The translations under genes and the position numbers were made by a program. This document shows positions 670 through 20,415 of a stretch of 44,926 bases of DNA, one piece after another. How positions within the stretch are numbered: the stretch's first letter is position 1; every line of letters begins with the position of its first letter. The stretch lies in the IMG/VR virus record IMGVR_UViG_3300045119_000122, positions 1 to 44,926 of that record, one strand, 5' to 3'. The notes beneath the pieces were generated by a model, which did not search any database, had not been told where the DNA came from, and saw only the letters and a program-made list of their open reading frames with translations. The stretch is from a virus.

Positions 670-1392
670 TTAGAGATCATCGCAAGTAATCGCGCCTTTA
701 GTTTCGAAGCTGCGTCTAAGTCCTTTTGATATAGTTTCTGAAACTCCGGGTTCTGCGAGTTGCGCGGATGCTGCTGCGAGTATATCTGCGCTGGTGGCAC
801 TTGCTTCCCAGCCAGACTCAGCAGCAAGCGCTGGGACTGAGTTAACTCTGGTTGCTGCAAGGCTTGCAACTGCTTGCGGAGTTGCGGTGACAAGGCTTCT
901 TGATCCTTCGTCATCATGTATCTCCACTATCTGGTTATGCGTGTTAGTAATGAATTTCTGGTTAACATGCATAGGAATATTAATTTGAACAATCTGCGAG
1001 GATTGAATCCCTACTGGACCATCTGCCATGCCACGTCGTTTAGTAGCATTGAGAACCTGAATACCTTTCAGAATCTCCATTGGCTTAGTCATCAGTGGAA
1101 TTACTTTGCCAAACTTAGTAAGCAGCTTGTCTTCGTATTCTAGATACTTATTATCTACCGAGGTCTGCATCTGCAGTGCCTGTAGTTTCAGCCGTGTTAC
1201 TTCCGCAGCAAATCGCGGCTCAGCCAGAAACTGGCTAATCAATCCCTCACTTACTCCAAGGGTGCTAGCGACCATTACTGCGCTAACCCCTTGGCCTAGA
1301 TATTTCAATGCTGCTGTCTGGTTGGTATTGAGACTGGCACGCCACTGAGCAGCGTCCGCCAAATCTACTGTTGACACTGCTGACTCAGTCAT
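670..1392 (-). CDS. HTH-containing protein, putative small terminase subunit
   Basis: First gene of the late arm, directly upstream of terL. It has an HTH-like segment ALKYLGQGVSAVMVASTLGVSEGLISQFL and an SD AAAGGGGA before the ATG. The 3' third is G-rich at codon position 1. The product ends ...AITCDDL. Confidence 0.55.
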   Translation of the reverse strand: MTESAVSTVDLADAAQWRASLNTNQTAALKYLGQGVSAVMVASTLGVSEGLISQFLAEPRFAAEVTRLKLQALQMQTSVDNKYLEYEDKLLTKFGKVIPLMTKPMEILKGIQVLNATKRRGMADGPVGIQSSQIVQINIPMHVNQKFITNTHNQIVEIHDDEGSRSLVTATPQAVASLAATRVNSVPALAAESGWEASATSADILAAASAQLAEPGVSETISKGLRRSFETKGAITCDDL

Positions 1393-2889: not shown

Positions 2890-3549
2890 ATGAAAACCGT
2901 GACTGCTAAACAAACATTTAAATCCGTGAGCGCTAAGCAAGTTGAGCTGCACGCTGCGTTGGCTGACCGGCTTGGCAAGAAACGCCCAGCAGTAGAATTT
3001 CAATTGCCACAGTATGAGCTAACAGATATTGCTGAGCTGGTAGAGAATCACAAACCAGTTTTGCTTACCTGTCTTAACGCTGCAATTGCACAACTGGCTA
3101 AAGACAAGTTTGCAGCACAGCCTGCTGATTGGACATGGTTTCCAAGTGTAGAGAATGATCTAAACTTGGCTGAATTGGCTAAGTCGTTTGAATCGCAGTC
3201 TCGCAGTCGTGTGCTGACTCTGGAATCTGCCGGCAAGCTCGCAGCTTGGCTTACTCGCAACATGGCAGCAATTGTTACCGGCATTCAAGTTGTGGAACCT
3301 GCTTACATGCCAACACAAGCTCAAGCAATTATCGGAGTTGTAAGCCAGTTTAATAAGTATGAGGCGAAAGGCTCTGAGTTTCTGGCTAAGATCATGTTGC
3401 GGCTTGAGCAGATTGCAGAAGCAATTGCTAGCTCGGATGATTTGGCAGAAGACTTTAGCAGCCAACCAGAACTGGCTAATGTGTATGATGCATTGATTGC
3501 CCGATTCAGTAAGGCAAGTGATGATGAGATTAGCGAGGACGCATTGTAG
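2890..3549 (+). CDS. Acidic helical protein, 219 aa, paralog of 10110..10718. Ends ...EISEDAL
   Basis: Track ORF 2836..3549. The ATG at 2890 is preferred because GGAG precedes it. Followed by a rho-independent terminator. Confidence 0.7.
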   Translation: MKTVTAKQTFKSVSAKQVELHAALADRLGKKRPAVEFQLPQYELTDIAELVENHKPVLLTCLNAAIAQLAKDKFAAQPADWTWFPSVENDLNLAELAKSFESQSRSRVLTLESAGKLAAWLTRNMAAIVTGIQVVEPAYMPTQAQAIIGVVSQFNKYEAKGSEFLAKIMLRLEQIAEAIASSDDLAEDFSSQPELANVYDALIARFSKASDDEISEDAL

Positions 3550-3576
3550 CAGCAAGCTGCTAACTCAATGATTCAC

Positions 3577-3599
3577 AGCCCCTTAACTGGGGCTTTTTG
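3577..3599 (+). terminator. Rho-independent terminator
   Basis: AGCCCC/GGGGCT stem, 6-nt loop, then TTTTT. Confidence 0.7.
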
Positions 3600-3645
3600 G
3601 GCAGAAGCGCAAGCGCAGTTGCTAGCGCAGTTAGGAGACACAATT

Positions 3646-3741
3646 ATGAGCTTTGTTGATCTTGTGGTTGATATGCTGGCAATTGCAGTTTGCACTTGGG
3701 TATTAGTAGAATTTGTTAAACAAGAATCGGAGAGTAAGTAA
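3646..3741 (+). CDS. Small membrane peptide, 31 aa
   Basis: AGGAGA SD. Hydrophobic core LAIAVCTWVLV. Its stop abuts the next ATG. Confidence 0.35.
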   Translation: MSFVDLVVDMLAIAVCTWVLVEFVKQESESK

Positions 3742-4131
3742 ATGAGCACTAATAAAGTTTTAAGTGTATTTGAACAAGCTTGCATGTATCGCACTAGACT
3801 GCTGCTGGTGAGTGCAGAAGTAATTCAATACACTAGTTGGCCTAAAGAATTTGCAGTGTCGCAGATTCAAGGAGTCGCAACTAAAACACCAACACTTAAA
3901 TTAGATCCTCGTAAACTCACCCTTAAACAGGCAAAGGAACTAGGATTTGGCCGTTGGGATAACAAGTCTAAAATTATGTTAATACCGCTTTGGTTAGTTC
4001 CAGCCTTGAATCCTAACACAGTAGTGACCTGCATTAACGGTAAGCGTATGAAGTTGAAAGACGCTGACAATGATCATCGCTTTGGCTGCATTGCTTACGG
4101 TGTAGCAAGCTTTGCAAAGGAGAGAAAATAA
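3742..4131 (+). CDS. Hypothetical protein, 129 aa
   Basis: Track ORF. Coupled to its neighbours. Confidence 0.65.
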   Translation: MSTNKVLSVFEQACMYRTRLLLVSAEVIQYTSWPKEFAVSQIQGVATKTPTLKLDPRKLTLKQAKELGFGRWDNKSKIMLIPLWLVPALNPNTVVTCINGKRMKLKDADNDHRFGCIAYGVASFAKERK

Positions 4132-4304
4132 TGCAGTTGCCTGTCGGACAGACTGACTGTTATTTCAGTGTAGTTAACAGATTTACAACGGCAGACTTCA
4201 GTTTAATTAAGCACATGATAGTAGACAAAGTGCTGAATGGTTGGAAAGTTGGACTTGAGCAAGATATGAAAACTAAAGAATACACTCTTTATTGGGGAGC
4301 CTAA
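4131..4304 (+). CDS. Hypothetical protein, 57 aa
   Basis: TAATG overlap with the upstream stop. Ends 1 nt before the next ATG. Confidence 0.45.
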   Translation: MQLPVGQTDCYFSVVNRFTTADFSLIKHMIVDKVLNGWKVGLEQDMKTKEYTLYWGA

Positions 4305-4305
4305 T

Positions 4306-4491
4306 ATGATCCTTGCAGCCACCAGCGTTAAAGTATTTATGTTTGTCACGTTTCTTTCCACCGGCTCAGAGGTAAAGTATCAGTTTGATACTGAAGCCAA
4401 TTGCAAAGCTGCAATGCCACCAGTTGTACAGTTGTATAAGTCTTTAGGCGACAAAGTTAATGTGAGCTGCATTGTCGTCGAGCGCAGCTAA
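4306..4491 (+). CDS. Small protein with an N-terminal hydrophobic/signal-like segment, 61 aa
   Basis: Track ORF. GGGGAG SD. Followed by a terminator. Confidence 0.55.
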   Translation: MILAATSVKVFMFVTFLSTGSEVKYQFDTEANCKAAMPPVVQLYKSLGDKVNVSCIVVERS

Positions 4492-4519
4492 CCTAACAAT
4501 ATCGCTAAGTCACATATTC

Positions 4520-4546
4520 AGCCTGGACTAACAATCCGGGCTTTTT
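4520..4546 (+). terminator. Rho-independent terminator
   Basis: AGCCTGGA/TCCGGGCT stem (one mismatch), then TTTTT. Confidence 0.6.
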
Positions 4547-4555
4547 AATGTCTGC

Positions 4556-4966
4556 ATCACGTCCGTCCGGTCACGACGCGCCGACCGTCCGACGGACAAA
4601 TTCTAAACCCCCTCCTCCCCCATGCCCTCCCTCTCCTACTACCACACTCTCCTACTATCTATCTCTCTACCTATCTCTATCTCTCTACCCTCTTAAAATT
4701 CACCAGTAAGAAAGAAAAATTCTTTTGTTTAAAAAACATAGGGGATACAAAACTATACGCAATCCAAGGATATAATATTAACTAACTTTTATTACTTAAC
4801 TTACATTCATTAATTTAATAGGGGGTATAAGTAGGCAGTGTGCGATAGGTAGGGCTAGTGGGGTAGTTAGTGGGTTAGCTAGTAGGTGGTAGATCGGGGG
4901 TGCAGGGGAGGGGGATGTGTGATATCGTCCGTCCGACCGACCGCGTGACGTGACGCGTCCGTCCGA
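4556..4966. other. Composite intergenic element: C/T-rich left arm, AT-rich core, G/A-rich right arm, flanked by CGTCCGTCCG repeats (candidate origin or control region)
   Basis: CGTCCGTCCG at 4560-4569, 4926-4935 and 4956-4965. Palindrome GTCCGACGGAC at 4587-4597. C-runs at 4608-4640. G-runs at about 4821-4915. AT-rich core at about 4694-4820 containing TATAAT (4771-4776). Confidence 0.6.
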
Positions 4967-4991
4967 TTAACCACTAACTAAGAGAACTGTT

Positions 4992-5429
4992 ATGTCTAGC
5001 TTGTCTACTAAGGTACGTCCTACTTTCACACTTGCAGAAATGCGCTTACTAGCACAAGGTATGGAGTTGCTACTTAATCGACATATTCAGGCTGGTGATT
5101 TTAATAATCCAATCTTGCTAGATATGATTAGAATTAAAGACTATTGCGGTGGATTTGTTCCAGCAGTGTCTAAAGCAAATGAGCAATCTAAGTTAGCTGC
5201 TTACATTCAGATGCAGGGTATTGAAACTTCTATTCCGCAAGGTACTGCTATTATCCAGCCTTTGGAAACTGGCAGTATCGAACTAACAGACGATCAAAGA
5301 TATGATCTTTTAAAACTGCGGGATGAATCTACATACAGTGACGAAGATAAAGTATTCATGCTTAATGTAGGCACTCTTATTATGATGCGTCGTGCTGGCA
5401 TTAATACAGTTACTGAGTCAGACCTGTAA
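4992..5429 (+). CDS. Hypothetical protein, 145 aa. Ends ...TVTESDL
   Basis: Track ORF. Bracketed by two large structured non-coding elements. Confidence 0.7.
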   Translation: MSSLSTKVRPTFTLAEMRLLAQGMELLLNRHIQAGDFNNPILLDMIRIKDYCGGFVPAVSKANEQSKLAAYIQMQGIETSIPQGTAIIQPLETGSIELTDDQRYDLLKLRDESTYSDEDKVFMLNVGTLIMMRRAGINTVTESDL

Positions 5430-5479
5430 TGCAATTGAGAATCATTCTCATCCTCATTACCCTGTCACACATTATTCCA

Positions 5480-5680
5480 GGCTCGCCCATCCTTTCCCGC
5501 GTACCCGCTAAGCTAGCTTATCCCAACCGATTCCAAGTCAAGCACCCACACAACAAATTCAGCGCGCCGGGCTTCGCCCTATGCTATAATTTGTAGGTGC
5601 TAGGGCGGGCTTGACTTTGAACCTTGCCGGTTGGGGCGCTACGCCTTAACGGTCACGGGGTTGCGGATAGCCGAGCCGCC
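5480..5680. repeat. GC-rich palindromic element, variant copy D
   Basis: Shared blocks are GCTAGCTTA(5512-5520), AAGTCAAGC(5535-5543)/GCTTGACTT(5609-5617), apex GGGC-TTC-GCCC(5569-5579), GCTAGGGC(5599-5606) and GGGGCGCTAC(5633-5642). Outer stem CCAACCG/CCGGTTGG. Confidence 0.65.
5582..5590 (+). promoter_or_regulatory. Extended -10 element TGCTATAAT inside the apex of element D
   Basis: Exact TGnTATAAT match. No good -35. It lies 135 nt upstream of gene 5725. Confidence 0.4.
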
Positions 5681-5724
5681 CCGCTACTAGCACACACGCT
5701 AACTAACAGAGTGAGATACTAGAA

Positions 5725-6021
5725 ATGGCAATATCACAGCATCAAGTACCTAAGAAATTAACTACCGGAATGGCAGTAGTTGCTTATTTGCCACCGACAC
5801 ATAGAATTGCAGGAATAGAAGCTAGAAATGGTGTAAGAGTAGGCAAATGGTTCAAAGCAAGTATTTATCAAATTGACTTAGATATGTACACAATTCAAGT
5901 TGGTAATATCCTTGTTGCATTACCAAAGAATCTTGTAATTCTGGTGCGCTCCACCAGTTGGAATGACAGTGATGCAAAGGTGCGAGCAGATAAACGTAAC
6001 GCAGTAAGAAATAGAAAGTAA
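5725..6021 (+). CDS. Hypothetical protein, 98 aa
   Basis: Track ORF. Confidence 0.6.
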   Translation: MAISQHQVPKKLTTGMAVVAYLPPTHRIAGIEARNGVRVGKWFKASIYQIDLDMYTIQVGNILVALPKNLVILVRSTSWNDSDAKVRADKRNAVRNRK

Positions 6022-6073
6022 CTGGCTAACTAACTTACTAAACCTTGAAAGTGTTGAAAGTGGAGAAACATAA

Positions 6074-7078
6074 ATGAAAGTGACTTGCCCAATTAGTGGC
6101 GTAACTTACATACTTATTGCGCCAGTGCGCGGACACGCGACTCACCCGCACCCGATGCTAAGTTCCAGCATTAAACTTAGTCAGCTTCACGACTGGTATC
6201 TAGCAGACTGGATTAAAGGGGACTTACCAGAACTGGAGACTCACTTGCTTGGCTGTGCTTACCTGCTTAAGTTACCAGTAGAATCTGTATGTATTACTAA
6301 CTTCGGCATGCCAGCTGCTAACTATGATCGATTCTGGTCTAGTAACATGGAGCGGCTGGCAAAACTAGCAACACGTTTGGAAGGTAAAATAGTTAAAGCC
6401 CGTAACTTGCCACGCATGGTAGTTAATGCTGAAACAATCTCTAATTTGCCTGACTGGCTTGGCACACTGGAATCTCAGATTGCTTGGGATTCAATGCCAG
6501 TTAGTGACAAGGCTAAAGAATTGAATCGCGAATCTTACAAAGTCTCCACTGAGGTATCTGGCCGCACCATTAGCCAATATCTAGATACCAGCGAGATTGA
6601 TGGAATAGTGTTGCGGGCATTGCGAGCTAGCCCACTAGCTAAATCTGAGCAGAAAGCATTGCCAGTAATTCTGGCGGATTGGGCGGGCAAAGTTACAGAC
6701 TTTCCAGCACATAGCCGCACTCGTTGGCACCGTGTGATTCAGACCATATTCCAAGATAACTATATTGACCAGATTCTAATGTCGGATATGACAGTGAAGC
6801 AGGTTAAAGCTATTGAGGAACATATGAAACTGAATACTCCACTGGATGCAGTGGGCACCAGTCACAGCAGCCTGTTAATGCAGCGACTGAGCGTAGTAAT
6901 TCCAGTGTTGGAAGACTTCAGTCCAGCAATCAGCAGTCGCAAGAAAGTAGATGATGCGGCGTTAAACTCGGCTCTTATGGGCGAGAGCAGCAAACCAGCA
7001 CAATCTACTGGCCCTAAAATGACACTGGCTGAGCGACTGGCTGCACGGCTGGCAGGTGTGGGGAGTAAGCAGCAATGA
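6074..7078 (+). CDS. Hypothetical protein, 334 aa
   Basis: Track ORF. GGAGA SD. No motif recognised. Confidence 0.75.
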   Translation: MKVTCPISGVTYILIAPVRGHATHPHPMLSSSIKLSQLHDWYLADWIKGDLPELETHLLGCAYLLKLPVESVCITNFGMPAANYDRFWSSNMERLAKLATRLEGKIVKARNLPRMVVNAETISNLPDWLGTLESQIAWDSMPVSDKAKELNRESYKVSTEVSGRTISQYLDTSEIDGIVLRALRASPLAKSEQKALPVILADWAGKVTDFPAHSRTRWHRVIQTIFQDNYIDQILMSDMTVKQVKAIEEHMKLNTPLDAVGTSHSSLLMQRLSVVIPVLEDFSPAISSRKKVDDAALNSALMGESSKPAQSTGPKMTLAERLAARLAGVGSKQQ

Positions 7079-7482
7079 TACTAAATACTGGCAAAGGTAA
7101 GTCATACACTTCTAGCCCTGAAATGACTAACGAAGTCAAACTAGAAAAATACATTCAGGACTGGAATCTAACTGAGGCTGAGAAGCGTCATCTTACTGGC
7201 CACTTTCTGCGCAACTGGACTCAAACTGAGCTGGAAGACAAACTAGTATTTGACCAGACTAGCGGAGTAGTTAAAGTTAGTTTGTGGAAAGTAGATTACA
7301 CACCAGTGTTTCAGGGCGAGCAGACTGCATGGGATCGACTGTGCTATCTAGCAGTGCGAGGAAAAGCTGACCCATTTTTTAACAAAAGTAGAGAGCCTAA
7401 ATTCTGGCTTAGTTTCCGATCTGGAATAATTGATGGTGAGAAATTTAATCTAGTAATTATTCAAGAGGATAAGAAACTATGA
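7075..7482 (+). CDS. Hypothetical protein, 135 aa
   Basis: ATGA overlap with the upstream gene. Confidence 0.7.
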   Translation: MILNTGKGKSYTSSPEMTNEVKLEKYIQDWNLTEAEKRHLTGHFLRNWTQTELEDKLVFDQTSGVVKVSLWKVDYTPVFQGEQTAWDRLCYLAVRGKADPFFNKSREPKFWLSFRSGIIDGEKFNLVIIQEDKKL

Positions 7483-7691
7483 GCCGAGAAAACTTGTTCG
7501 GCAGCAGCCGGTGGCAACCGGGACGCCGACTGGTAAGTGTTTATGAAGCTAAGGCAGCGCAGAAGTTACTACTTAAGCAGGGACACACTGAAATGTATGC
7601 CTTTGCTGTAGTGTGTGAAGCTTCCCAAGTTGCAATAGAGAAAGTAGACTCCTTTATTAACCTTATGATTCAGTCCGCTAAGGAATCTTAA
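7479..7691 (+). CDS. Hypothetical protein, 70 aa
   Basis: ATGA overlap with the upstream gene. Confidence 0.6.
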   Translation: MSRENLFGSSRWQPGRRLVSVYEAKAAQKLLLKQGHTEMYAFAVVCEASQVAIEKVDSFINLMIQSAKES

Positions 7692-7694
7692 CTA

Positions 7695-9479
7695 ATGAAT
7701 ATGAAAGTGGAATCACCCGTAGAAAAACTGAGACGGCTAGCCCGTGAATCCCGCGAACGCCGAGAGGGTGTAGCAGCAGCGCCACTAGATAACACTAAAA
7801 TAGCAGAAGCATTACAGGAACTGGCTGCACCAGAACCTAGTTTCAACGGTGTGCCTTACACTGAGCGCCAGTTACTAGCCATTACTTACGCAACTCAAGG
7901 TGCCAGTTTTTGTATGACTGGTGCAGCTGGTACTGGTAAAACAACCACTACCCGCGGAGTTGTGTCTGCACTAATTCAAAGTAATAAGATTCCAACTCTT
8001 AAGATTACCCACAACTATCTAAGTTCTGGTACGTCCGGAATAGTAGGCTGTGCATTTACTAACAAAGCTGTGCAGAATATCAAGCGGGTAATGCCAAAGG
8101 ATCTGCAAGGTAACTTCATCACTATTCACAAACTACTAGAATTCCAGCCTGAATACTGGGAAGAGTATGATGATGAGAAAGGTAAAGTAGTTACCAAGAT
8201 GGAGTTTAAACCATCTCGTAATAAAAACAATCCACTACCAGAAAGTCTAAAGGTACTGATAATTGAAGAAGCTACCATGGTTTCTATTGACTTATGGAAT
8301 ATGCTATTTGACGCGCTACCAATCGGCGGCAATATTCAAATCATTCTGGTAGGTGACATTCAGCAGTTACCGCCAGTATTTGGTAAGTCTATCTTTATCC
8401 ACGCAATGCAAGTCGGCATTAAAGTAGTAGAACTAGATCAAGTTCACCGGCAAGCGCTAGATTCACCGATCCTAGAACTAGCGCACCGTGTGTTGTCCGG
8501 TAAGATCATTCCCGGAGTAGAGCTGAAAGAGTGGAACAAAGAAACTTCCAGCGGTAAAGTTACTATTGTGCCATGGAAAAAGTCACTGACTCCTGAGATT
8601 GCAGTGCGTAAAGTAGCGAAAGACTTTCTACCTAATGCAATTAAGGAAGGTACATACCATCCATTTGAGGATGTTGTGCTGTGCCCGTTTAACGTTAACT
8701 TCGGTGTGGTTGAGATTAACAGGCACATTGCTACTTACTTGGCTCAGTCTGAGAAGTGGAATCCAGAAGGTAATCTGGTGTATGAAGTAATTGGCGGAGT
8801 TAATACAAAGTATTTCCGCATTGGTGACAAGGTTCTGTGGAATAAAACTGAGCACATTGTCACAGATATTAAAGTTAACAGTAAATACTATGAGAAAGAT
8901 CCTCAGCTACCAAGTCAGACACTTGATTACTGGGGAACCGAAACTGACGAGCATGCACAAGATGCAATGATGGCATTGCTGGCAGGTGATACCGGTGCAG
9001 GTGATGCGCACAGTAAAAAGATCGATCTGTTACTAGCTTCATTTGACCAGCTGGCAGATAGTAATGGCGAGAAAGCTCAGTCCCGGCAATGCAGTCACAT
9101 TATTAAGGTGCAGTCTAATGACTTTCCAGAATCAGAAATATCTACTAGCGGTGATCTTGCCTTACTTGACTTGGCTTATGCTATTACTGTTCATAAATCT
9201 CAGGGGTCTGAATATCGTAGAGTCTTTTTTGTCACGCACAAATCCCACGCAACAATGTTATTTCGTGAGCTTGTTTACACTGCCATCACGCGAGCCAAGG
9301 AAGAATTGGTAGTTATATGCCCAGACAATCTATTTGTGGCTGGCATTACTAGCCAACGATTGCCAGGTAAGACATTAGCTGAAAAGATTGCAGCGTTTCA
9401 ACGGTATCTGGAAACAAGTAAAGTCTCTAGTACTGAACTGCCGAGAGGCATTGGATTACTTGTTGGTAATGAGGGTTAA
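7695..9479 (+). CDS. SF1 DNA helicase, RecD/Dda-like
   Basis: Walker A GAAGTGKTTT, Walker B LIIEEATMVS, motif III ILVGDIQQLPPV, C-terminal AITVHKSQGSEY. Confidence 0.85.
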   Translation: MNMKVESPVEKLRRLARESRERREGVAAAPLDNTKIAEALQELAAPEPSFNGVPYTERQLLAITYATQGASFCMTGAAGTGKTTTTRGVVSALIQSNKIPTLKITHNYLSSGTSGIVGCAFTNKAVQNIKRVMPKDLQGNFITIHKLLEFQPEYWEEYDDEKGKVVTKMEFKPSRNKNNPLPESLKVLIIEEATMVSIDLWNMLFDALPIGGNIQIILVGDIQQLPPVFGKSIFIHAMQVGIKVVELDQVHRQALDSPILELAHRVLSGKIIPGVELKEWNKETSSGKVTIVPWKKSLTPEIAVRKVAKDFLPNAIKEGTYHPFEDVVLCPFNVNFGVVEINRHIATYLAQSEKWNPEGNLVYEVIGGVNTKYFRIGDKVLWNKTEHIVTDIKVNSKYYEKDPQLPSQTLDYWGTETDEHAQDAMMALLAGDTGAGDAHSKKIDLLLASFDQLADSNGEKAQSRQCSHIIKVQSNDFPESEISTSGDLALLDLAYAITVHKSQGSEYRRVFFVTHKSHATMLFRELVYTAITRAKEELVVICPDNLFVAGITSQRLPGKTLAEKIAAFQRYLETSKVSSTELPRGIGLLVGNEG

Positions 9480-9482
9480 GAT

Positions 9483-9716
9483 ATGATTGACGCAAATAAA
9501 GCAGCAAGTAAAATTACAAGTCAGCGAGTTAAAGTAGCTATGGATAGTCTGCAAATTCTAATCATTAAAGCTTGTGAAGAGGATGCAACTGAGACTTACA
9601 TAACAGTGCCTTATGATTTGTGGCAAGTAATCAGACTCGAGTTAGTAGCTCTAAATTATCAGACTGAAAGTATTGGCAATGATCAATACAAGGTTAAATG
9701 GGGGCATTTGATATGA
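9483..9716 (+). CDS. Hypothetical protein, 77 aa
   Basis: Track ORF. Confidence 0.6.
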   Translation: MIDANKAASKITSQRVKVAMDSLQILIIKACEEDATETYITVPYDLWQVIRLELVALNYQTESIGNDQYKVKWGHLI

Positions 9717-9982
9717 ATAGAGAATCTAGTGACCTGCAAATATTGCAGCGTAAAAACTCTTGGGCCAAACGCCAGATTAAGGGAGCTACTAGCGGATACA
9801 TGAAAGCTAGCGAGCAGCTAGGACTTAAACAAGCGCAGTTAGTAGAGCTGCAAAAGACTATTCTGAAACTCGAAACTACTATGCTCAATCAGTTAGCAGA
9901 GAATTACGAAGCAACTAAAGCCACAATCTTGTGGGAACGTCAAACTGGTAAGAAGCTGGGAGTAACTAACTCTAGCCAGTAA
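9713..9982 (+). CDS. Hypothetical coiled-coil protein, 89 aa
   Basis: Track ORF 9698..9982. The ATG at 9713 overlaps the upstream TGA (ATGA). Confidence 0.55.
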   Translation: MNRESSDLQILQRKNSWAKRQIKGATSGYMKASEQLGLKQAQLVELQKTILKLETTMLNQLAENYEATKATILWERQTGKKLGVTNSSQ

Positions 9983-9998
9983 AGAAAAAAATCACCCC

Positions 9999-10027
9999 TT
10001 GACGCGGGGGGCCATTTGAGAGACAAT
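9999..10027 (+). promoter_or_regulatory. Candidate promoter TTGACG-17-GACAAT embedded in an 8-bp GC inverted repeat
   Basis: -35 at 9999-10004 and -10 at 10022-10027. CGCGGGGG(10003-10010)/CCCCCGCG(10030-10037) flank the spacer. Confidence 0.35.
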
Positions 10028-10109
10028 CACCCCCGCGATGCAGCATTCCCCGCTGAATTTTCTGCAACACTCTCCGCGAATATCTCGCACTTAATTAAGG
10101 AAACAAATC

Positions 10110-10718
10110 ATGACTCAAGTACAACTGGCAGTAACCACCGACGCTAAGTTCAACTACCGTGAAAACAAAGAAACTAGAGTTAAGCGCCCGTCGCTGGAGC
10201 TGAAAGTTCCTACCGTAACTGTAGCAGCAATTGCTGAGTATCTGGGCAGCGAAGATCCTAAAGTAGTTTCGCTGGTAGTAGATAACATTCAAGCAGTTAT
10301 CACTAACTTGGTTCGCAGCTACGCAGATAACGATCTGGAATTCTCGCAAGAGAAACTGGACGCACTGATTGCTGAAGGCAAGATTGCTCTGGAAGTTGTG
10401 GCTAACCTGCCACGCTCTGAGCGTAACAGCCTCACTAACGAAGATCTGGCAGCCTTTGGCGCAGTTTATTTCAAGCTGGCTCAGGAACTGCTGGACAAGT
10501 CGGAAGGCCAAGCAACTGCTGCTGTTGTTGTATTTAACAGCCGCGTTAAAAAGATTGCTGGTAACGTTGCTGCTCTCAACAAAGTCAAAGCTGACTTGGA
10601 AACTTTCCTTGAGAAAGCTGATGACGCAGTTATTGAAGAGCATGCCCGCTCCCTGCAATATCTGACCAGCAAGATCGACGAGTACTTGGCTGAAGATATC
10701 ACTGAAGACAGCCTGTAA
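10110..10718 (+). CDS. Acidic helical protein, 202 aa, paralog of 2890..3549, probably highly expressed. Ends ...DITEDSL
   Basis: Track ORF. Own promoter candidate and terminator. Codon choice resembles the capsid gene. Confidence 0.8.
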   Translation: MTQVQLAVTTDAKFNYRENKETRVKRPSLELKVPTVTVAAIAEYLGSEDPKVVSLVVDNIQAVITNLVRSYADNDLEFSQEKLDALIAEGKIALEVVANLPRSERNSLTNEDLAAFGAVYFKLAQELLDKSEGQATAAVVVFNSRVKKIAGNVAALNKVKADLETFLEKADDAVIEEHARSLQYLTSKIDEYLAEDITEDSL

Positions 10719-10758
10719 TTCGAAACAAACTTTGAGTAGGCCAACTGCTCAACTACTT

Positions 10759-10777
10759 AGCCCGCCTTGTGCGGGCT
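10759..10777 (+). terminator. Hairpin terminator with a short U-tract, possibly leaky
   Basis: AGCCCGC/GCGGGCT stem, CTTGT loop, then TTTG. Confidence 0.5.
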
Positions 10778-10779
10778 TT

Positions 10780-11482
10780 GTCAGTAGTGAAGTTTGTCCG
10801 CGCAGCCGTTGTGCACAAACCGAGTACGCCAGCAACTTCACAGTGAGGACGAGGAAAAGATACTACAGTTGTGCTAGCGTATCTACTGAGCCGCAACGCA
10901 GGATATTCGTACCTTACCTAATTTAACCCGCCTTTCCTAATTGGATTGTGCGGGTTAAGTCAGTAGTAGGGTTTGTTAGTATCTGCTGTGAGTACGGGTT
11001 CGATCCCCGATAAGCTATTATGCTGAATATGCTGGTGCATAGATAAGACGTAAGACTCAGGGTTGGATTCCCTGCACTAACTTACTTTACTAATCGGAGA
11101 AAGTACCAGAACTAAAAAGACTGGGAAATGCTGAGTATTCCAGACGAATTTGAGCCGGGCACTGGAAGAGAATCTAAAAAGCCCCTTAAAGATTCGGGTC
11201 GGCGGTCACTGCCGCGAAGTTGGTTAGGTCTTATGTCACGGTGAGTTACTAACCTCAGTAGAAAGTGTGACAACAATTGCGTAGCAGACAAGGAAGTTAA
11301 AGGAGACTAAGTTATAGATACTACCCGCTAAGGCTGGTATATACCCTCCTGCTACATGTGGTCGCTGCGCCACGTTAAATCCAGCAGCAACTAATTCAAA
11401 GGTACGCACGCTAACAGTGCTATCTAAAACTGCCTCAGGTTAGCCCAATGCGAATTGGTAACTAGCACTGGGGCTTTTTGTT
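10780..11482 (+). ncRNA. Candidate large structured non-coding RNA region (class unknown)
   Basis: About 700 nt with no credible ORF in a compact genome. Many local hairpins, for example GTGAAGTT(10787-10794)/AACTTCAC(10834-10841), AGATAC(10857-10862)/GTATCT(10878-10883) and CCAAT-GCGA-ATTGG (11445-11458, GNRA loop). Also T-arm-like GGGTTCGATCCCC. A T-run at 11475-11479 is a possible 3' end. Strand and ends are inferred. Confidence 0.35.
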
Positions 11483-11498
11483 GCCACGAGGAAATTAA

Positions 11499-11753
11499 AT
11501 GCTATATCTAACTAGTGTTGCGGTTAGCTTTGTAGCTGTATTCCTAAAAGGTTTTCAACACAAGAATGTAATTGCTGGAAAATACTCAGCTACTTTTTAT
11601 ACTTCATTTGCAATGGCTGCTTTTGATTGGGCTACCATTACAATAGTGTTAAAAGGTGGCTGGATAGTTGCAATAACTGCTGGAACTGGTGCAGCGTTTG
11701 GTATGATTACAGCCATGGCGTTGCATGATAAATTATTTAAATCAAAAGGATAG
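11499..11753 (+). CDS. Small membrane protein with three predicted TM segments (holin-like topology)
   Basis: Track ORF. Hydrophobic segments and a charged C-terminus, HDKLFKSKG. Confidence 0.6.
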   Translation: MLYLTSVAVSFVAVFLKGFQHKNVIAGKYSATFYTSFAMAAFDWATITIVLKGGWIVAITAGTGAAFGMITAMALHDKLFKSKG

Positions 11754-11758
11754 ACAAT

Positions 11759-12067
11759 ATGAGTCAAGTACATTGCACATTTAGTGCAGAAGAAATTTTG
11801 GCTAAGAATGGTTTGACTGAGATTACTAAAGCTAAACCATTTCCGGTAGTGGGCCAGATCTGCTACATCAAACACCAAGTTAAACGCACAAGCTCTGGTG
11901 AAACTCTGGGACTTAATCGCGCAGATGGTAAGCCAGTAGCAGCACTTATTACCGCTGTGTATCTGGATGGCACTGTGCGCACTGGCATCAGTGACGTGTG
12001 GGAAGTAACTCCAGGAACTAACAATACTTGGGAAACAGTCAATCCATTTCATGGTAAGTCGGAGTAA
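11759..12067 (+). CDS. Hypothetical protein, 102 aa
   Basis: Track ORF. Confidence 0.65.
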   Translation: MSQVHCTFSAEEILAKNGLTEITKAKPFPVVGQICYIKHQVKRTSSGETLGLNRADGKPVAALITAVYLDGTVRTGISDVWEVTPGTNNTWETVNPFHGKSE

Positions 12068-12069
12068 GC

Positions 12070-12786
12070 ATGAGCCAGACAGCACAGATTAAAAAGTTCA
12101 ATTTTACAGAGTCACAGCTGACTAAGTTGTGCAAAATGCAAGACGAACTCAATACTTACATTCACCCTAACTGGAAGTGGCAAGGATTTGATTGGGAAAC
12201 TGCTGTAAACGATGAGTGTCTTGAAATTCTAGGACATCTTGGTTGGAAGTGGTGGAAAGATAAAACTTATAAGCAAGGGGTTACTGAAGCTAACAAGGCT
12301 CAGATTAAACTGGAACTGATTGACCTGCTGCATTTTGTAGTTAGTAGCCGTATTGAGAACGCCCCAGATGGAGAGAATGGATTCCTGGAAGTGGGAATTA
12401 ATGTAGCATTTGACCCAACTGGTTACGGATTTTACGAGAGTGTTAAAACTCTGCAACAAGATGCATTGCACTACGGAATTAATACTGACACGGTGCAGTT
12501 TCTTACCAGACTTATGCATCTAGTTGATATGACTGAGCAGGAGATTCTGGAAACTTACACGCAGAAGTATGTGTTGAATAAGTTTCGTCAGGATCACGGA
12601 TATAAAGACGGTAGCTATGTTAAGGAATGGGAACTGGAAGATAATCTTGGTGGTTTGCGTCTCGAAGATAACGAAGTTCTAGCTCGGGAAGTTAAGGCTC
12701 TCGTATTAGAAGGCCAAGATACTACCGACGAAACAATCCTTTACGAGCGGCTAGAGTTGCGCTATAATTCACGCCTGAACAAGTGA
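12070..12786 (+). CDS. All-alpha NTP pyrophosphohydrolase, dimeric-dUTPase-like
   Basis: Pattern ...ECLEILGHLGWKWWKDK...ELIDLLHFVVS resembles dimeric dUTPase (dUTPase_2) motifs. Recalled from memory, not searched. Confidence 0.55.
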   Translation: MSQTAQIKKFNFTESQLTKLCKMQDELNTYIHPNWKWQGFDWETAVNDECLEILGHLGWKWWKDKTYKQGVTEANKAQIKLELIDLLHFVVSSRIENAPDGENGFLEVGINVAFDPTGYGFYESVKTLQQDALHYGINTDTVQFLTRLMHLVDMTEQEILETYTQKYVLNKFRQDHGYKDGSYVKEWELEDNLGGLRLEDNEVLAREVKALVLEGQDTTDETILYERLELRYNSRLNK

Positions 12787-12811
12787 TTGTAACTTAGGCG
12801 GGAGATTAATC

Positions 12812-13504
12812 ATGGCAGAATCATTGGCAGAAAGGCTTAAGCGGATAGCTGCTGAGAAGAAAGCAGCGGCAGCTAAGGTAACTGAGCCAGTTGCGGAGGT
12901 AAGCAGTGATGACAGACTGGAGCCAGTACGGGAAGGAGAAGTCGCCGGAGCAGCAGATATTACAACTTCGGCAGACACTGACAACAGCCCAGTTGGAACT
13001 GGCGGAGACTCGGCAACAGTTGAAACTGGCTGTGGCAGCGAAACAGCCAGTCAGTCAGATAGAACTAAAGTCAGCTTGGAGTCTGATCCAACTGCTGGAG
13101 AATCGGCTAGCAGCAACGAAGGGCTGGAATCGGGACATGCAGTACCAGTTGGATCAGACTCACAAGCATCGAGTAGCTTGGAAGTCCTTGACAATTCTGA
13201 GCTGGTTGATTCTACTCGTGTTGATGTACTTCCTGAACACCCACTAGCAATGCAGTTTGCAGAACTAGAGGCCGCTCTACTAGCTCGTGATCCAACATTT
13301 AAAACTATCTTGCGTCAAGTTCACCAGCATCTGGGCAAAGATCCTGAGCTAGTAACTATGATGACTGAAGAAGAAGTAGCAATGATAGTTGGTGGGCTTG
13401 TGCTATTTGCTAACACAGAAATTGTAGAGCCAGCGAAAGCTAAGGGTGTAAAGAAAGCAGTAGCGGCTGCAAAGAAAGTTGTAATCAGCGCAGACGATTT
13501 GTAG
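12812..13504 (+). CDS. Acidic protein, 230 aa, with a long low-complexity S/T/D/E linker. Ends ...VISADDL
   Basis: Track ORF. GGGAGA SD. Codon position 1 is strongly G-rich throughout. Confidence 0.7.
   Translation: MAESLAERLKRIAAEKKAAAAKVTEPVAEVSSDDRLEPVREGEVAGAADITTSADTDNSPVGTGGDSATVETGCGSETASQSDRTKVSLESDPTAGESASSNEGLESGHAVPVGSDSQASSSLEVLDNSELVDSTRVDVLPEHPLAMQFAELEAALLARDPTFKTILRQVHQHLGKDPELVTMMTEEEVAMIVGGLVLFANTEIVEPAKAKGVKKAVAAAKKVVISADDL
12909..13247 (+). CDS. Embedded out-of-frame ORF, 112 aa: Q/L-rich helical region plus a C-terminal TM segment (candidate overprinted gene)
   Basis: GGAGG at 12895-12899 lies 6 nt before GTG 12906 and 9 nt before ATG 12909. The product ends ...SLTILSWLILLVLMYFLNTH. 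It lies entirely within the disordered linker of 12812..13504. Confidence 0.35.
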   Translation: MTDWSQYGKEKSPEQQILQLRQTLTTAQLELAETRQQLKLAVAAKQPVSQIELKSAWSLIQLLENRLAATKGWNRDMQYQLDQTHKHRVAWKSLTILSWLILLVLMYFLNTH

Positions 13505-13519: not shown

Positions 13520-13984
13520 ATGGCTAAGTTTGGTCGGGCATTGTGGGAAGCAAGTGACGCAGGACAATCAGTCGGGCAACTAGAGACGGCTGTATCACTG
13601 TGGCTTCGCACTTTAGGAACCCCACTAGACGACCAACTTGGCCTAGCTAATATGATTAGATTGTTAGTAAAGCCAGCAAACTCTCTGTACTTTGCAGAGG
13701 GTATTCCAAAGTTGCCAAGGACAGTAACATCTACTGGTGTAATGGTGCCACACATTCCAGGAATATCTATTCTCTGGGCTAGTGAGGCTAATGCTATTCA
13801 CCCTAGGCTAACTTTGGAATATCTAAAGTATGCAAGTCAAGAAGTAAGGATGAACCTTAGTTGGCTTGAGTATGCCCTTGCCAAGGCGATCGGGTCGCTG
13901 TATAATTCGGGCGTAGATTGGACAAGCCGATTGGGTAAGAAGATTGAAACAATTGCAGGAATCGAAAAGGTAGACTGGCTATGA
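13520..13984 (+). CDS. Hypothetical protein, 154 aa
   Basis: Track ORF 13517..13984. The ATG at 13520 follows GTGGGAG. Confidence 0.65.
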   Translation: MAKFGRALWEASDAGQSVGQLETAVSLWLRTLGTPLDDQLGLANMIRLLVKPANSLYFAEGIPKLPRTVTSTGVMVPHIPGISILWASEANAIHPRLTLEYLKYASQEVRMNLSWLEYALAKAIGSLYNSGVDWTSRLGKKIETIAGIEKVDWL

Positions 13985-14997
13985 ATTTCCTAGATGATTT
14001 AGATTCTCTTCCTAACTTTCTGGATCAGCCAGCGCCCACTGCTCTGATGATTCCAGTAGTTAACTTGCCAGAAGGCGCAGTAGATCCAAGACTGAGCCGA
14101 CTGTCCTACTCAGGGCTACTTGATTTGCACGCATGCCCACGCAAGTTTCAGCTGAATAAACTTCAAGCCGAGAAGCCTGAGCAAGACATTAGTACTAGTG
14201 TCACATTTGCCTACGGGCATGCAATTGGTGAAGGAATTCAGCAGTTTCTAATTCACCGTGGCCAAGGTTCTGAGAAAGCATTTCAAACTGCTATATGGAA
14301 AATGTTCTTAGCTTGGGATTGCGACTTGCTGGACGAGAACCATAAGCAGAAGAAGAGTTTCCTTAGAGCAGTTGCTGCTATGATCCAATTCAAATCTATG
14401 TCAGACGAAGGTCTGATAGGTGAAGAGTGGGAAGTAGCAGAATTTAATGGTAAGCCAGCGGCCGAGCTGGGATTTAAGATTGATCTTGGCGATGGATTTT
14501 ATTACCGCGGCTATGTGGATTTGGTGCTGCGTAATAAATATACTGGTGAGTATCTGATTCTGGAATTGAAAACCAGTTCAGCAAATTACATTAACCATTA
14601 CAGCTATAAGAATTCAGCTCAGGCAATTGGATATAGTGTGGTGCTTGACACTATTGCACCGGGCGTATCCAGTTACGGTGTACAGTATCTAGTATACATG
14701 ACTAAGCTAGAACAATTTGAAGCGTTTGACTTTCCCAAGTCGTTTCGTCAGCGGGTGCAGTGGCTACAGGATGTTATCTGGGATAAGAAACAGATCCAAG
14801 ATATGGAAGCATTCTACGGTGCTGATGGCATCTGGCAAGTACGCGGTGAAAGTTGCTGTGACTTCGGTAGAGTCTGTGACTACATGGATATCTGCGGACT
14901 GGAAACTAAGTCATTGGTATCTCCGCTGCTGGAGAGTCAGCTAGTGGAAGATAAGACCTATGACTTTAACTTTACATTGCAGGAGTTGCTGACATGA
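13981..14997 (+). CDS. PD-(D/E)XK nuclease, Cas4/RecB-like, with a Cys cluster
   Basis: GYVDLVL...LILELKTS (D...ExK). Cysteines at HACPRKF and CCDFGRVCDYMDIC suggest an Fe-S cluster. ATGA coupling. Confidence 0.7.
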   Translation: MNFLDDLDSLPNFLDQPAPTALMIPVVNLPEGAVDPRLSRLSYSGLLDLHACPRKFQLNKLQAEKPEQDISTSVTFAYGHAIGEGIQQFLIHRGQGSEKAFQTAIWKMFLAWDCDLLDENHKQKKSFLRAVAAMIQFKSMSDEGLIGEEWEVAEFNGKPAAELGFKIDLGDGFYYRGYVDLVLRNKYTGEYLILELKTSSANYINHYSYKNSAQAIGYSVVLDTIAPGVSSYGVQYLVYMTKLEQFEAFDFPKSFRQRVQWLQDVIWDKKQIQDMEAFYGADGIWQVRGESCCDFGRVCDYMDICGLETKSLVSPLLESQLVEDKTYDFNFTLQELLT

Positions 14998-15254
14998 GTA
15001 TGACTCAAGAGCAAAGAGATTTAGTTCTTAAAAAATTTGCTGAGGGAATTGCTAGTAAAGCTCTGGGAATTGCTTGGTATGATACTGAATCTCAAGCCAG
15101 AACTGTGGCTCAAGCTTCGGCTGAGGCGCTACTTGCTGTAGTAATGAAAGCTCTCGTAGTAAAGAATGCTGAAAATAGTTATGAATACCACAAAGCTGTG
15201 GGCGAGTTAGTTGAATTAATTATTGGAGATCTGCCCGATGGCCAACCTCAGTGA
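14994..15254 (+). CDS. Hypothetical protein, 86 aa
   Basis: ATGA overlap with the upstream gene. Confidence 0.6.
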   Translation: MSMTQEQRDLVLKKFAEGIASKALGIAWYDTESQARTVAQASAEALLAVVMKALVVKNAENSYEYHKAVGELVELIIGDLPDGQPQ

Positions 15255-16035
15255 ACTGAAAGAGACAAAGGTAAAGCACATAATGCTGTTTGGTCCGCCC
15301 AAGTCTGGTAAGACTAAGCGTGCAGGTGAGCTGGCTAAGTACAAGAAATTAAAGTGGTTTGACATTGAGAAAGGGTTTGGCACTCTCTTTCAATTGCCAG
15401 CTGAGGTGCAAAAGAATGTGGAGCTGTTTCACATTCCAGATACTACCGATGCACCAATGGCGATTGAGACAATACTCAAGATTGTCAAAGGTGCTAAGGT
15501 TAGTTTCTGTGAGAAGCATGGTAAGGTGACTTGCCCACTTTGTGCTAAAGCTAATGCCGAAGTGCCTAACTCAGCGGTGATTAATACTATCGAGCTGAAC
15601 GCCCTTGACAGTGACGAGTGTTTTGTAATAGACTCTGCAACACAGCTAAGGCAATCGGCAATGAATCACATTGCTAAAGGTAAGCCAGTTGATTACAAGT
15701 TTGAGTTTGATGACTGGGCTAAACTTGGCAGACTGATGGATATATTCTTCAGTTACATTCAGAACGCAACTTATAATGCCATTGTAATTAGCCACGAAGA
15801 CGAAGTTAAAATGGTTGATGGTGCAACTAAGTTGGTGCCAGTTGGTGGTACTACCAAGTTCTCCCGCAATGTGGCTAAGTACTTTGATGAAGTCATTTAC
15901 TTCCGGGTAGTTAACGGCAAGCACAAGATGGCTAGCAGCACAGCAACAGACAACAATATTCTGACCGGCAGTCGTGCTAACATAGACTTCGGTAAGATGG
16001 AAGATCCTAGCTTGCACTTGTTGTGGGAAAGCTAG
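15238..16035 (+). CDS. AAA_24/Sak4-like P-loop ATPase (recombination-associated)
   Basis: Walker A GPPKSGKT and Walker B CFVIDSAT. Sits next to the nuclease and the SSB-like gene. Confidence 0.65.
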   Translation: MANLSELKETKVKHIMLFGPPKSGKTKRAGELAKYKKLKWFDIEKGFGTLFQLPAEVQKNVELFHIPDTTDAPMAIETILKIVKGAKVSFCEKHGKVTCPLCAKANAEVPNSAVINTIELNALDSDECFVIDSATQLRQSAMNHIAKGKPVDYKFEFDDWAKLGRLMDIFFSYIQNATYNAIVISHEDEVKMVDGATKLVPVGGTTKFSRNVAKYFDEVIYFRVVNGKHKMASSTATDNNILTGSRANIDFGKMEDPSLHLLWES

Positions 16036-16653: not shown

Positions 16654-16736
16654 CAGCATCAGCACCGAGAGTTTTTAATCAAGTCAGCAATGACGCTGCT
16701 TTGCTTAAGAGCTTTGAGAGTAACAGGAGTCATAAG

Positions 16737-19106: not shown

Positions 19107-20415
19107 GCAAGCCAGAGTCAGTAGGCTTAGAGTCAGTGACAGTGACAACCCATACGTTAATCCTGACGGATCGACAGACTTCTTTAACGATTACATTACG
19201 TACACAGGGGGAACAGAAGTCCCAGCTCACGCTAACCGTTGGTCAGCAATCGGTATGCTGGGAGCATGGCTTGGAAGGGATATTTTCATTAGATACGGAT
19301 CATCTAAACTCTATGCTAATCAGTATATCATGCTACTCGGGGAAGCGGGATCAAAGAAGTCTACCGCTATTAAGACAGCTAAGCGAACTCTTAAGGCTGC
19401 TGGCTATTCAACATTCTCAGCTGAGAAAATTTCAAAAGAGAAATTCTTAGAAGAGTTATCCAAAGATAAATCTGGTGGAATGGAATCCAGTTTCACACCA
19501 AACATTCTAGATCAACAACTCTGGGGAGACTTGGATGAATCAGATTACAGGCAAGTCTGGGTTACAGCTGATGAATTCAATGAGTTCTTTGCCAACAACA
19601 TTCTTGAATTCTGCTCCACGCTCGGCAACCTGTGGGACTACGATGGGATATACGAGAACTCTGTTAAACACGGAGCCTCAGTTGTTATCCCTAACCCCAC
19701 TGTTAGCATTCTTTCCGGTAACACGCCAACAACTTTTGCTGGGACATTCCCCATCGAAGCAGTTGGACAAGGATTCTTCAGCCGAGTTCTGGCAGTCCAT
19801 ATTAAAGGATCTGGACGCAAGATTATTAGACCTAGAGAACCCTCAGAAGCAGAGACCGAATCAATCATTGCTAGACTACTGGAGATTAAGAACTACCACA
19901 CAGGGGAAGTTACCATCACGGAAGATTCCTGGGCTTTACTAGATAGGATATACCAAGCATGGAAACCAATCCCAGATTCTCGATTCATATCTTACGGAGG
20001 TCGGCGAGTAACTCACCTGTTGAAACTCGCACTGATACATGCAGCTTCTAGGCTTAGTAAAACTATTGATCCGATTGATATCCGTCGGGCTAATACTGTA
20101 CTTGATTACACAGAACACTTTATGCCAGAAGCCTTTGGTGAATTCGGAACATCCCGAAACTCTGGGATGACACATAAGATTCTTAAGGAACTGGAGATTT
20201 CAGATGAGTTACTTAACATTCATGATCTGTGGGCTAAGGTACAGCTAGACTTTGATAAGCTAGACAGTTATCAGAGTCATGTGATGGGTATGATACAAGC
20301 AGGTAAAATCCAAATGGCAGGTGACAAGTTGTTACCGGCTAAGCGGGTACTTAAAACTCCGGTAACTGAATATCTTGATTACCGGTATATGGTTGATGAA
20401 GAGCGTGGGGCGTAA
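19099..20415 (+). CDS. P-loop NTPase, putative replicative (SF3/D5-like) helicase
   Basis: Walker A GEAGSKKST, Walker B-like WVTADEF and motif C-like ILSGNTP. The ATG overlaps the polymerase stop (ATGAATGA). Confidence 0.5.
   Translation: MNEQARVSRLRVSDSDNPYVNPDGSTDFFNDYITYTGGTEVPAHANRWSAIGMLGAWLGRDIFIRYGSSKLYANQYIMLLGEAGSKKSTAIKTAKRTLKAAGYSTFSAEKISKEKFLEELSKDKSGGMESSFTPNILDQQLWGDLDESDYRQVWVTADEFNEFFANNILEFCSTLGNLWDYDGIYENSVKHGASVVIPNPTVSILSGNTPTTFAGTFPIEAVGQGFFSRVLAVHIKGSGRKIIRPREPSEAETESIIARLLEIKNYHTGEVTITEDSWALLDRIYQAWKPIPDSRFISYGGRRVTHLLKLALIHAASRLSKTIDPIDIRRANTVLDYTEHFMPEAFGEFGTSRNSGMTHKILKELEISDELLNIHDLWAKVQLDFDKLDSYQSHVMGMIQAGKIQMAGDKLLPAKRVLKTPVTEYLDYRYMVDEERGA

Follow-up and report, generated by a model that had tools for sequence, protein, structure and literature searches.

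Introduction

Shared terminal peptides organise the clients of replisomes and of sliding clamps, and in phages this has been established for few models, namely T7, T4/RB69 and, recently, Mu. The subject of this article is a viral DNA of 44,926 nucleotides (IMG/VR virus record IMGVR_UViG_3300045119_000122, positions 1 to 44,926), referred to below as the window, in which five predicted proteins end in a common hexapeptide tail. The carriers are a small terminase (TerS)-like protein and four early proteins designated P2 to P5. The shared tail is real, non-random and a property of the peptide. It is probably a short linear docking motif that is read by one receptor common to its carriers, as judged from sequence comparison.

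In the small terminases P22 gp3, λ gpNu1 and Sf6 gp1, a C-terminal segment binds the large terminase (TerL). The T4 clamp is also linked to terminase, and the tails of phage T7 end in ..DF. The acidic C-terminal tail of T7 gp2.5 has been described (PMC10359462), and a polymerase loop shared by the T7 tails is attributed to Hamdan 2005 (PMC556000, as cited in PMC10359462). Bacterial sliding clamps are bound through a short motif, Qφx[L/M][F/L] or Qφx[L/M]x[F/L], in which the hydrophobic pair is essential, and the binding pocket on the clamp is conserved across bacteria (PMC11139829). MuC of phage Mu uses the host clamp (PMC12867686). The literature on the phage family to which the window belongs holds nothing on the tails described here.

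Occurrence of the tail in the window

All five open reading frames (ORFs) exist with the ends that an earlier note on this DNA, made from the letters without database searches, had reported for them. The pattern [IV]-[ST]-x-[DES]-[DAS]-L has five matches among 13,385 hexapeptide positions in a set of 65 genes, all five of them C-terminal and none internal. Of the 232 further ORFs with 40 or more amino acids (aa), in whatever frame, none ends in it, which bears out the further claim that no other predicted product ends in this way. Since the pattern was set post hoc, a second test was made without it, in which the best five-member cluster by BLOSUM62 was taken from all C-terminal hexapeptides. 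That cluster consists of exactly the five carriers and has a score of 150, compared with null scores of 60.5±11.9 when internal hexapeptides are drawn at random and 61.9±11.4 when columns are shuffled. The chance frequency that the note had wished to see estimated is accordingly low, as a score of 150 was reached in 0 of 5000 shuffles under either null.

The five tails are written in different codons, and past their stop codons the sequences have nothing in common, which places the signal in the peptide and not in the DNA. A DNA-level element, such as a promoter or terminator overlapping the gene ends, was considered and is ruled out by the same differing codons and unrelated post-stop sequences. 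A frame or stop error, which the note had named as grounds for refutation, is excluded because orthologues in independent assemblies share the same ends.

The five carriers

The carriers, the codons of their tails and the tails of their orthologues are summarized in Table 1. The start of P2 is ambiguous, with ATG at 2890 giving 219 aa and GTG at 2836 giving 237 aa; the C-terminus is unaffected. P5 begins with an acidic stretch rich in Ser, which is followed by ~75 aa of helical domain and by a Lys-rich linker that leads to the tail. The isoelectric points of the five carriers are all acidic (4.5-5.7), and their last 20 residues have a net charge of +3 in P5, +1 in TerS, 0 in P3, -4 in P2 and -5 in P4.

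Table 1. Tail-carrying proteins of the window, positions of their tail codons, and tails of their orthologues in window-clade relatives.
Feature	Position	Strand	Description	Tails in window-clade relatives
TerS-like protein	670..1392	-	240 aa; Ala/Ser-rich C-terminal extension; end ...KGA-ITCDDL	ITADDL
TerS tail codons, ITCDDL	673..690	-	ITADDL in orthologues	
P2	2890..3549	+	First large early protein; paralogue of P4; end ...DDEISEDAL	ISEDAL, ITVDAL, ISEEAL
P2 tail codons, ISEDAL	3529..3546	+		
P3	4992..5429	+	Early protein, 145 aa; end ...NTVTESDL	VKAEDL, VGMGDL, VNPSDL, VSDKDL
P3 tail codons, VTESDL	5409..5426	+		
P4	10110..10718	+	202 aa; just downstream of Dda-like helicase; end ...AEDITEDSL	ITADSL, ITAESL
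P4 tail codons, ITEDSL	10698..10715	+		
P5	12812..13504	+	230 aa; end ...KVVISADDL	ISADDL, ITADDL
P5 tail codons, ISADDL	13484..13501	+	Same peptide, other codons in L002 and L004	

The presence of a TerS-like protein among the carriers, as claimed in the note, is supported by its match, at 28% over 142 aa, to the protein annotated as small terminase in Polaromonas phage Tiera and by its position directly upstream of TerL in the circularised contig. The same note regarded the five proteins as unrelated to one another, and this holds for all pairs except one. P2 and P4 are distant paralogues (hhalign of family against family: probability 96%, E = 3.4e-9, 167 columns), whereas every other pair is unrelated (profile-profile probability <=1.3%). 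The tail is thus found on four independent families, and protein ancestry does not explain the common tip because these families are unrelated.

Pfam and PHROG yielded nothing convincing for any carrier, the best E-values being about 0.04-0.1, and neither P5 nor family 10, a tail-less protein of the window discussed below, matched a PDB sequence. The AlphaFold2 (AF2) model of P4 reaches a predicted local distance difference test (pLDDT) value of 89 and comprises two N-terminal strands and a helical bundle, with the last ~8 residues at low confidence. P5 is modelled as a small helical bundle at pLDDT 87-89, with its linker and tail at 49-63. These predictions suggest that the tails are flexible in P4 and P5, the two carriers modelled. 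Foldseek returned no fold relative in the PDB for either model, and the BFVD match of P4 was an unnamed orthologue alone. The P2/P4 family has >418 homologues and is uncharacterised; its confidently modelled fold, without a relative in the PDB, combines a β-hairpin with a helical bundle, and the family has a conserved PKAERRGGG-like loop.

Conservation among relatives

Related loci, cited here by L numbers, comprise 45 from an alignment-based IMG/VR scan and 10 more from exact-protein look-ups. The window-clade relatives compared were L002, L003, L004, L048 and L056. All five tails are kept in these relatives wherever the gene is covered, and L056, the most divergent window-clade genome sampled, retains 4/4 covered tails. 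With the last residue counted as position 0, Ile/Val occupies -5 and Leu occupies 0 without exception in 17/17 window-clade tails; Ser/Thr is preferred at -4 and acidic residues at -2 or -1. Position -1 is family-specific, being D in TerS, P3 and P5, A in P2 and S in P4.

Identity over the last six residues is mostly higher than identity over the whole protein, most clearly for P5 (0.83-1.0 vs 0.48-0.51) and P3 (0.50-0.67 vs 0.32-0.45). The bodies of the P3 orthologues are 32-45% identical and all of them end in V-x-x-x-D-L. Identical tails are encoded by synonymous codons among orthologues (ATC/ATT, AGC/AGT, GAC/GAT and TTG/CTC/CTG/TTA). A search of 5.8 billion proteins showed an I-T-x-[DN]-D-L end in 49/50 TerS homologues of 50-90% identity, after a linker that is variable. 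The tail is kept down to ~46% helicase identity, and no other early protein of the window clade has such a conserved tail. The persistence in orthologues that the note had asked to be checked is therefore found, and by these comparisons the tail is under purifying selection at the level of the peptide.

Origin and spread of the tip

P5 is a core gene across the phage group and was found by iterated profile search in most related loci sampled, including gp44 of Pseudomonas phage 119X. An exhaustive hidden Markov model (HMM) search of 1.84 billion representative proteins places at least 1058 clusters in the P5 family. The best 150 of these 1058 matches are 84-246 aa long, mostly with the match reaching the C-terminus or ending within few residues of it, and include no fusion of the P5 domain. 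An earlier word-indexed search had over-sampled a clade with ..DMF tips, and the exhaustive search replaced that picture. Among 137 tips, the consensus is [LIV]-[ST]-[ALV]-D-[DM]-[LFI] after Lys-rich sequence, with DDL in 47, DMF in 15, DDI in 10 and DML in 6, and with a hydrophobic last residue in 129/137. The ISADDL end of the window is, in this sampling, the majority form of the P5 family.

The other carriers show a different history. Tailed TerS proteins are 230-268 aa long, compared with 187-200 aa for more distant homologues, which are mostly without the tail. Outside the window clade, the P4 family has a D-E-x-x-L-L-A-N-L end, with L at -4, -3 and 0 in 115-118/120 homologues, and the P2-like positional homologues in other clades bear DLLAAL-type tips. 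Judged from these homologues, the tail shared by P2 and P4 is derived and not inherited from their paralogue ancestor. Examples of the LLxxL tip on P4 and P2 families include L006 12134-12799, L007 12117-12941, and L042 10979-11878 and 3582-4262, among others; further loci are L009 3527-4204 and L050 8399-9097.

L005, the sister to the window clade in a concatenated tree of helicase, exonuclease and Sak4, has its own tail set, with VSAADL on TerS, ITALDL on the P2-like protein, ISASDL on a 140-aa protein and VTVDML on P5 (three-member cluster test, p < 0.001). The simplest history, read from the distribution of tips, would be that in a common ancestor TerS acquired the P5-type tip, which also took the place of LLxxL on P2 and P4. 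In sister clades a small protein beside P5 (family 16) also carries P5-type tips, and such tips turn up sporadically in family 10 and in an early protein of 159 aa. The occurrences on family 10 look like recurrent gain of the motif. Family 10 itself (a conserved protein of ~340 aa, upstream of the helicase; 6074-7078 in the window) has no tail in the window and no Pfam or PDB match. Its P5-type tips in some relatives are IKAGDL, ITLGDL and INESDI (L048 3256-4299, L050 4485-5564 and L053 4998-6128).

Parallel tail sets in distant relatives

More distant relatives carry tail sets of other composition. In Tiera, four proteins have ..DF ends (IPKDF, TSDF, PSDF and ATDF), of which IPKDF belongs to TerS (p = 0.003). 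L038 and L040 each have three or four proteins with ..EDF ends (p <= 0.001). Phage 119X has two ~230-aa paralogues that end in ELDW and EMDW and a P5 homologue that ends in IQSEF; gp01 and gp57 bear the ..DW tips. The cluster test for 119X was not significant. Over 1271 proteins from all loci, which include homologues and are to that extent non-independent, the P5-type pattern is 13.6-fold and LLxxL 12.5-fold enriched at C-termini compared with internal positions.

A tip of the kind found on bacterial SSB, the protein that binds single-stranded DNA, behaves differently. It is nearly invariant wherever a relative encodes a small protein bearing it (DDDIPF, DDDIPY or NDDVPF), and D-[IV]-P-[FY] is retained in most relatives with such an SSB-like protein. 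Small proteins ending in DDDIPF or DDDIPY are located at L007 13923-14294, L042 12463-12807, L009 13431-13790 and L001 35735-36172. They have no Pfam SSB match. In L007, L009 and L042 the protein lies immediately upstream of the P5 homologue, and the window clade is without it.

A probable docking motif read by a common receptor

Several features argue for the docking motif proposed in the Introduction. The tail consists of six residues with few fixed positions and stands at the end of a tether predicted with low confidence in P4 and P5. It is conserved within orthologues, has been gained or has converged in unrelated proteins in a modular manner (gain by TerS, conversion of P2 and P4, sporadic gain by family 10), and appears to be re-coded in step across families from lineage to lineage. 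Of the three functions that the note had offered for a common signal, namely docking, sorting and degradation, a docking peptide fits the conservation, selection and modular gain, and degradation and sorting are unsupported.

A possible sequence of events can be proposed on this basis. P5, a core protein of the replication module, would have been the original carrier of the hexapeptide on a flexible C-terminal tether. The tip would then have been added to the small terminase as a C-terminal extension in the ancestor of the clade, and would have replaced the older LLxxL on the paralogues P2 and P4; it is also present on P3. The five proteins would bind the same site on the receptor, where a hydrophobic pocket may accept the terminal Leu and the Ile/Val at -5, and adjoining basic residues may hold the free carboxylate and the Asp/Glu. 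In this way, the carriers would be recruited to one hub or would compete for it. The receptor is more likely to be a co-evolving phage replication or packaging protein than a conserved host hub, because the P5-type tip is re-coded by lineage while the SSB-type DDDIPF tip is nearly invariant. Candidates would be a receptor in the style of T7 gp5, which receives gp2.5 and gp4, or the domain of P5 itself.

Several points weigh against the docking reading or against parts of it. The bodies of the carriers are without known domains or folds, which leaves their functions uninformative about a hub. The case for a phage receptor draws solely on the variation of the tip, and a relaxed pocket on a host protein could give the same pattern. 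The family-A polymerase of the window (16701-19106) has no detectable sequence similarity to T7 gp5, which is not among the 55 PDB sequences that match it at E <= 0.001; the matches are Klenow and Taq. Sister clades pair the ..DDL of P5 with unconverted LLxxL on P2 and P4, which may mean that two receptors exist; in that case, the window clade may have lost one of them and converged for this reason. A comparison of gene content with sister clades found several small families missing from the window clade, none of which could be singled out as a lost LLxxL receptor.

A more far-reaching version of the docking reading is possible and is put forward tentatively. The hexapeptide might belong to a private tail code that is read by a phage hub, possibly the helical domain of P5 or another core replication or packaging protein. 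Sets of clients that include TerS would be wired to this hub, and packaging would be physically coupled to replication. Tip and hub would be re-coded together between lineages (..DDL, ..DMF, ..DF, ..DW), and in the window clade the second code, LLxxL, would have collapsed into the first.

Comparison with described systems and alternative explanations

Of three systems compared, the contact of T7 gp2.5 and gp4 with gp5 has the best-matching logic, in which several phage proteins address one replisome site. The tails of T7 and of the window are similarly flexible, acidic and C-terminal, have a hydrophobic last residue and occur on different proteins, and the distant relatives Tiera, L038 and L040 have ..DF tips. 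There are also clear differences. The carriers here are TerS and proteins of unknown fold, and not an SSB of the oligonucleotide-binding (OB) fold or a helicase. P4 had been considered as an OB-fold SSB similar to T7 gp2.5 (as had P2 and family 9), and this was rejected for P4 on its helical AF2 model; the model of the P5 domain is also helical, and no carrier matches the Pfam SSB family. In the window, Ile/Val at -5, Ser/Thr at -4 and a last Leu define a hexapeptide, whereas T7 has a long poly-acidic stretch ending in Phe; all five tails end in Leu, in place of the strongly acidic end with an aromatic last residue. In P5, TerS and P3 the linker beside the tail is basic, and the window polymerase resembles Klenow/Taq in sequence.

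The small terminases offer a further comparison, since in them, as here, a C-terminal end takes part in a protein-protein contact. In the window clade, however, the same tip is also present on four non-packaging proteins, and many TerS homologues of the phage family are without it. The tail of TerS therefore appears to be an add-on and not a generic contact between TerS and TerL.

Like the tails, the C-terminal tip of SSB is a terminal peptide carried by a disordered linker, with acidic residues ahead of a last hydrophobic residue that has a free carboxylate, and it serves a large number of contacts. On this common chemistry, the tails could mimic the tip of host SSB and dock to, or compete for, SSB-interacting enzymes, and relatives do use a true SSB-type tip on a small protein beside P5 that the window clade lacks. 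This explanation is nevertheless unlikely. SSB is one carrier with many receptors, whereas here many carriers presumably share one receptor. The window tails have no acidic run followed by [IL]-P-F, with neither a penultimate Pro nor a terminal Phe, and SSB tips have no counterpart of their conserved Ile/Val at -5 and Ser/Thr at -4. In related phages DDDIPF and P5-type tips coexist on different proteins, which argues for different receptors. The T7 and SSB precedents that the note had invoked are thus analogies only, as the residues of the SSB tip and a terminal aromatic residue are absent and the polymerase resembles Klenow/Taq, not T7 gp5, in sequence.

Clamp-binding motifs, as in bacteria, in T4/RB69 (gp45 with gp43, gp33 and gp55) and in MuC, resemble the tails in that unrelated proteins reach one hub through a short and often C-terminal motif. 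That hub couples replication to other processes, including late transcription in phages, and a clamp would be a sensible hub linking replication proteins with TerS. The tails might accordingly recruit their carriers to the host β-sliding clamp DnaN or block it. In a subset of the P5 homologues a Lys-rich linker leads to an S-x-D-M-F or x-D-L-F end, which fits the last three residues of Qφx[L/M][F/L], and Mor is functional with DLF alone (PMC12867686). Some P4 homologues end in N-L-L-L-A-L, which is near Qφx[L/M]x[F/L]. The idea was attractive after the word-indexed search and was downgraded by the exhaustive search, with its ..DDL majority, and by the published definition of the motif. In the five window tails the hydrophobic pair and the Gln are absent, and position 4, where L or M is required, is D, A or S whether they are read as pentamer or hexamer; in MuC, binding is abolished by an L-to-A change at that position (PMC12867686). 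Read as a hexamer, the tails have I/V at position 1 and S/T at position 2; read as a pentamer, they have S/T at position 1 and C/E/A at position 2, so that no window tail has an aliphatic second residue. None of the 17 window-clade tails contains Gln. In the unbiased search just 27/137 P5 tips end in [LM][FLI], against a D-D-L majority, and a pocket conserved across bacteria is a poor fit to lineage-specific re-coding of the tip. Clamp binding is accordingly regarded as very unlikely.

Equally improbable is a role in degradation or timing, in which a protease or adaptor of the host or the phage would read the tail and remove the carriers at a set time. C-terminal peptides are a known class of bacterial degron, and four of the carriers are early proteins that may need clearing. 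Known C-terminal degrons such as ssrA, however, are non-polar at the end (..LAA), and the tails, which end in D-D-L, D-A-L, S-D-L or D-S-L, are acidic. Among the carriers are TerS, a late protein of packaging, and a core protein of >1000 clusters, and coordinated re-coding of the tip would be unexpected for a conserved host protease.

That the tails have no shared function and reflect chance, composition bias, paralogy or a DNA/RNA signal is effectively refuted: P2 and P4 are paralogues and acidic carriers raise the odds of D/E near the ends, but the shuffles, the lack of internal matches, the unrelated families, the derived tail of P2 and P4, the differing codons with nothing conserved past the stop, and the strong conservation in orthologues all speak against it.

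Genome context

The window is a complete JGI metagenome contig. A 127-bp terminal direct repeat at 1-127 and 44800-44926 closes the assembly to a circle of ~44.8 kb. Once this repeat is taken out, TerL reads as one intact ORF of 499 aa on the minus strand, running from 422 across the junction to 43725 (43725-44926 plus 128-422). The early/replication arm on the plus strand encodes a Dda-like helicase (7695-9479), a MazG-like enzyme, a PD-(D/E)XK exonuclease, a Sak4-like ATPase (15223-16035), the family-A polymerase and a primase (19060-20415), and the structural arm is on the minus strand. No phage clamp gene was detected among the proteins scanned, no recognisable SSB was found in the window by tblastn or Pfam, and Rfam and tRNA scans of the window gave nothing. 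The syntenic relatives found in GenBank are distant ones, namely Polaromonas phage Tiera and the Pseudomonas phages 119X, PaP2 and PaMx41 (Fredfastierviridae). Close GenBank phage relatives were found neither by megablast nor by tblastn with P4, and a single-protein IMG/VR scan with the helicase returned no relatives.

Other features of the window and its relatives were observed along the way. A gene-poor stretch of ~780 bp after P4 contains a 31-nt direct repeat (10767-10797/10946-10976; 81% identical, 179 nt apart), and a 14-nt inverted repeat (10918-10963) overlaps its second copy. Upstream of P3 (4580-4975) there are CGTCCGTCCGAC-type and CT-rich repeats. The protein directly downstream of P5 (13517-13984) has acidic-aromatic ends in the clade (VDWL, ADFF, AEFLL and AEFLK), and the PD-(D/E)XK exonuclease (13981-14997) has a conserved end, QELL[ST] or EELL; these ends are candidates for further terminal motifs. 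Genes that close the replication arm in relatives, at L048 19301-19582 and L054 11910-12209, have products with a recorded match, weak in L048, to the Acb2/Tad1 hairpin family of anti-CBASS/anti-Thoeris sponges.

Implications

The tail would represent a new variant of a known docking principle, notable for TerS as a client, for the replacement of one tip by another and for the large uncharacterised family involved. It provides a statistically solid case in a large and almost uncharacterised phage group related to Fredfastierviridae, in which one tip is seen to extend to further proteins and to displace another. A peptide of 6-10 residues would be a direct handle on the hub, and it could be used to assign functions to families of early proteins that are now annotated as hypothetical. 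Cultivable relatives exist in Pseudomonas aeruginosa, which makes the idea testable.

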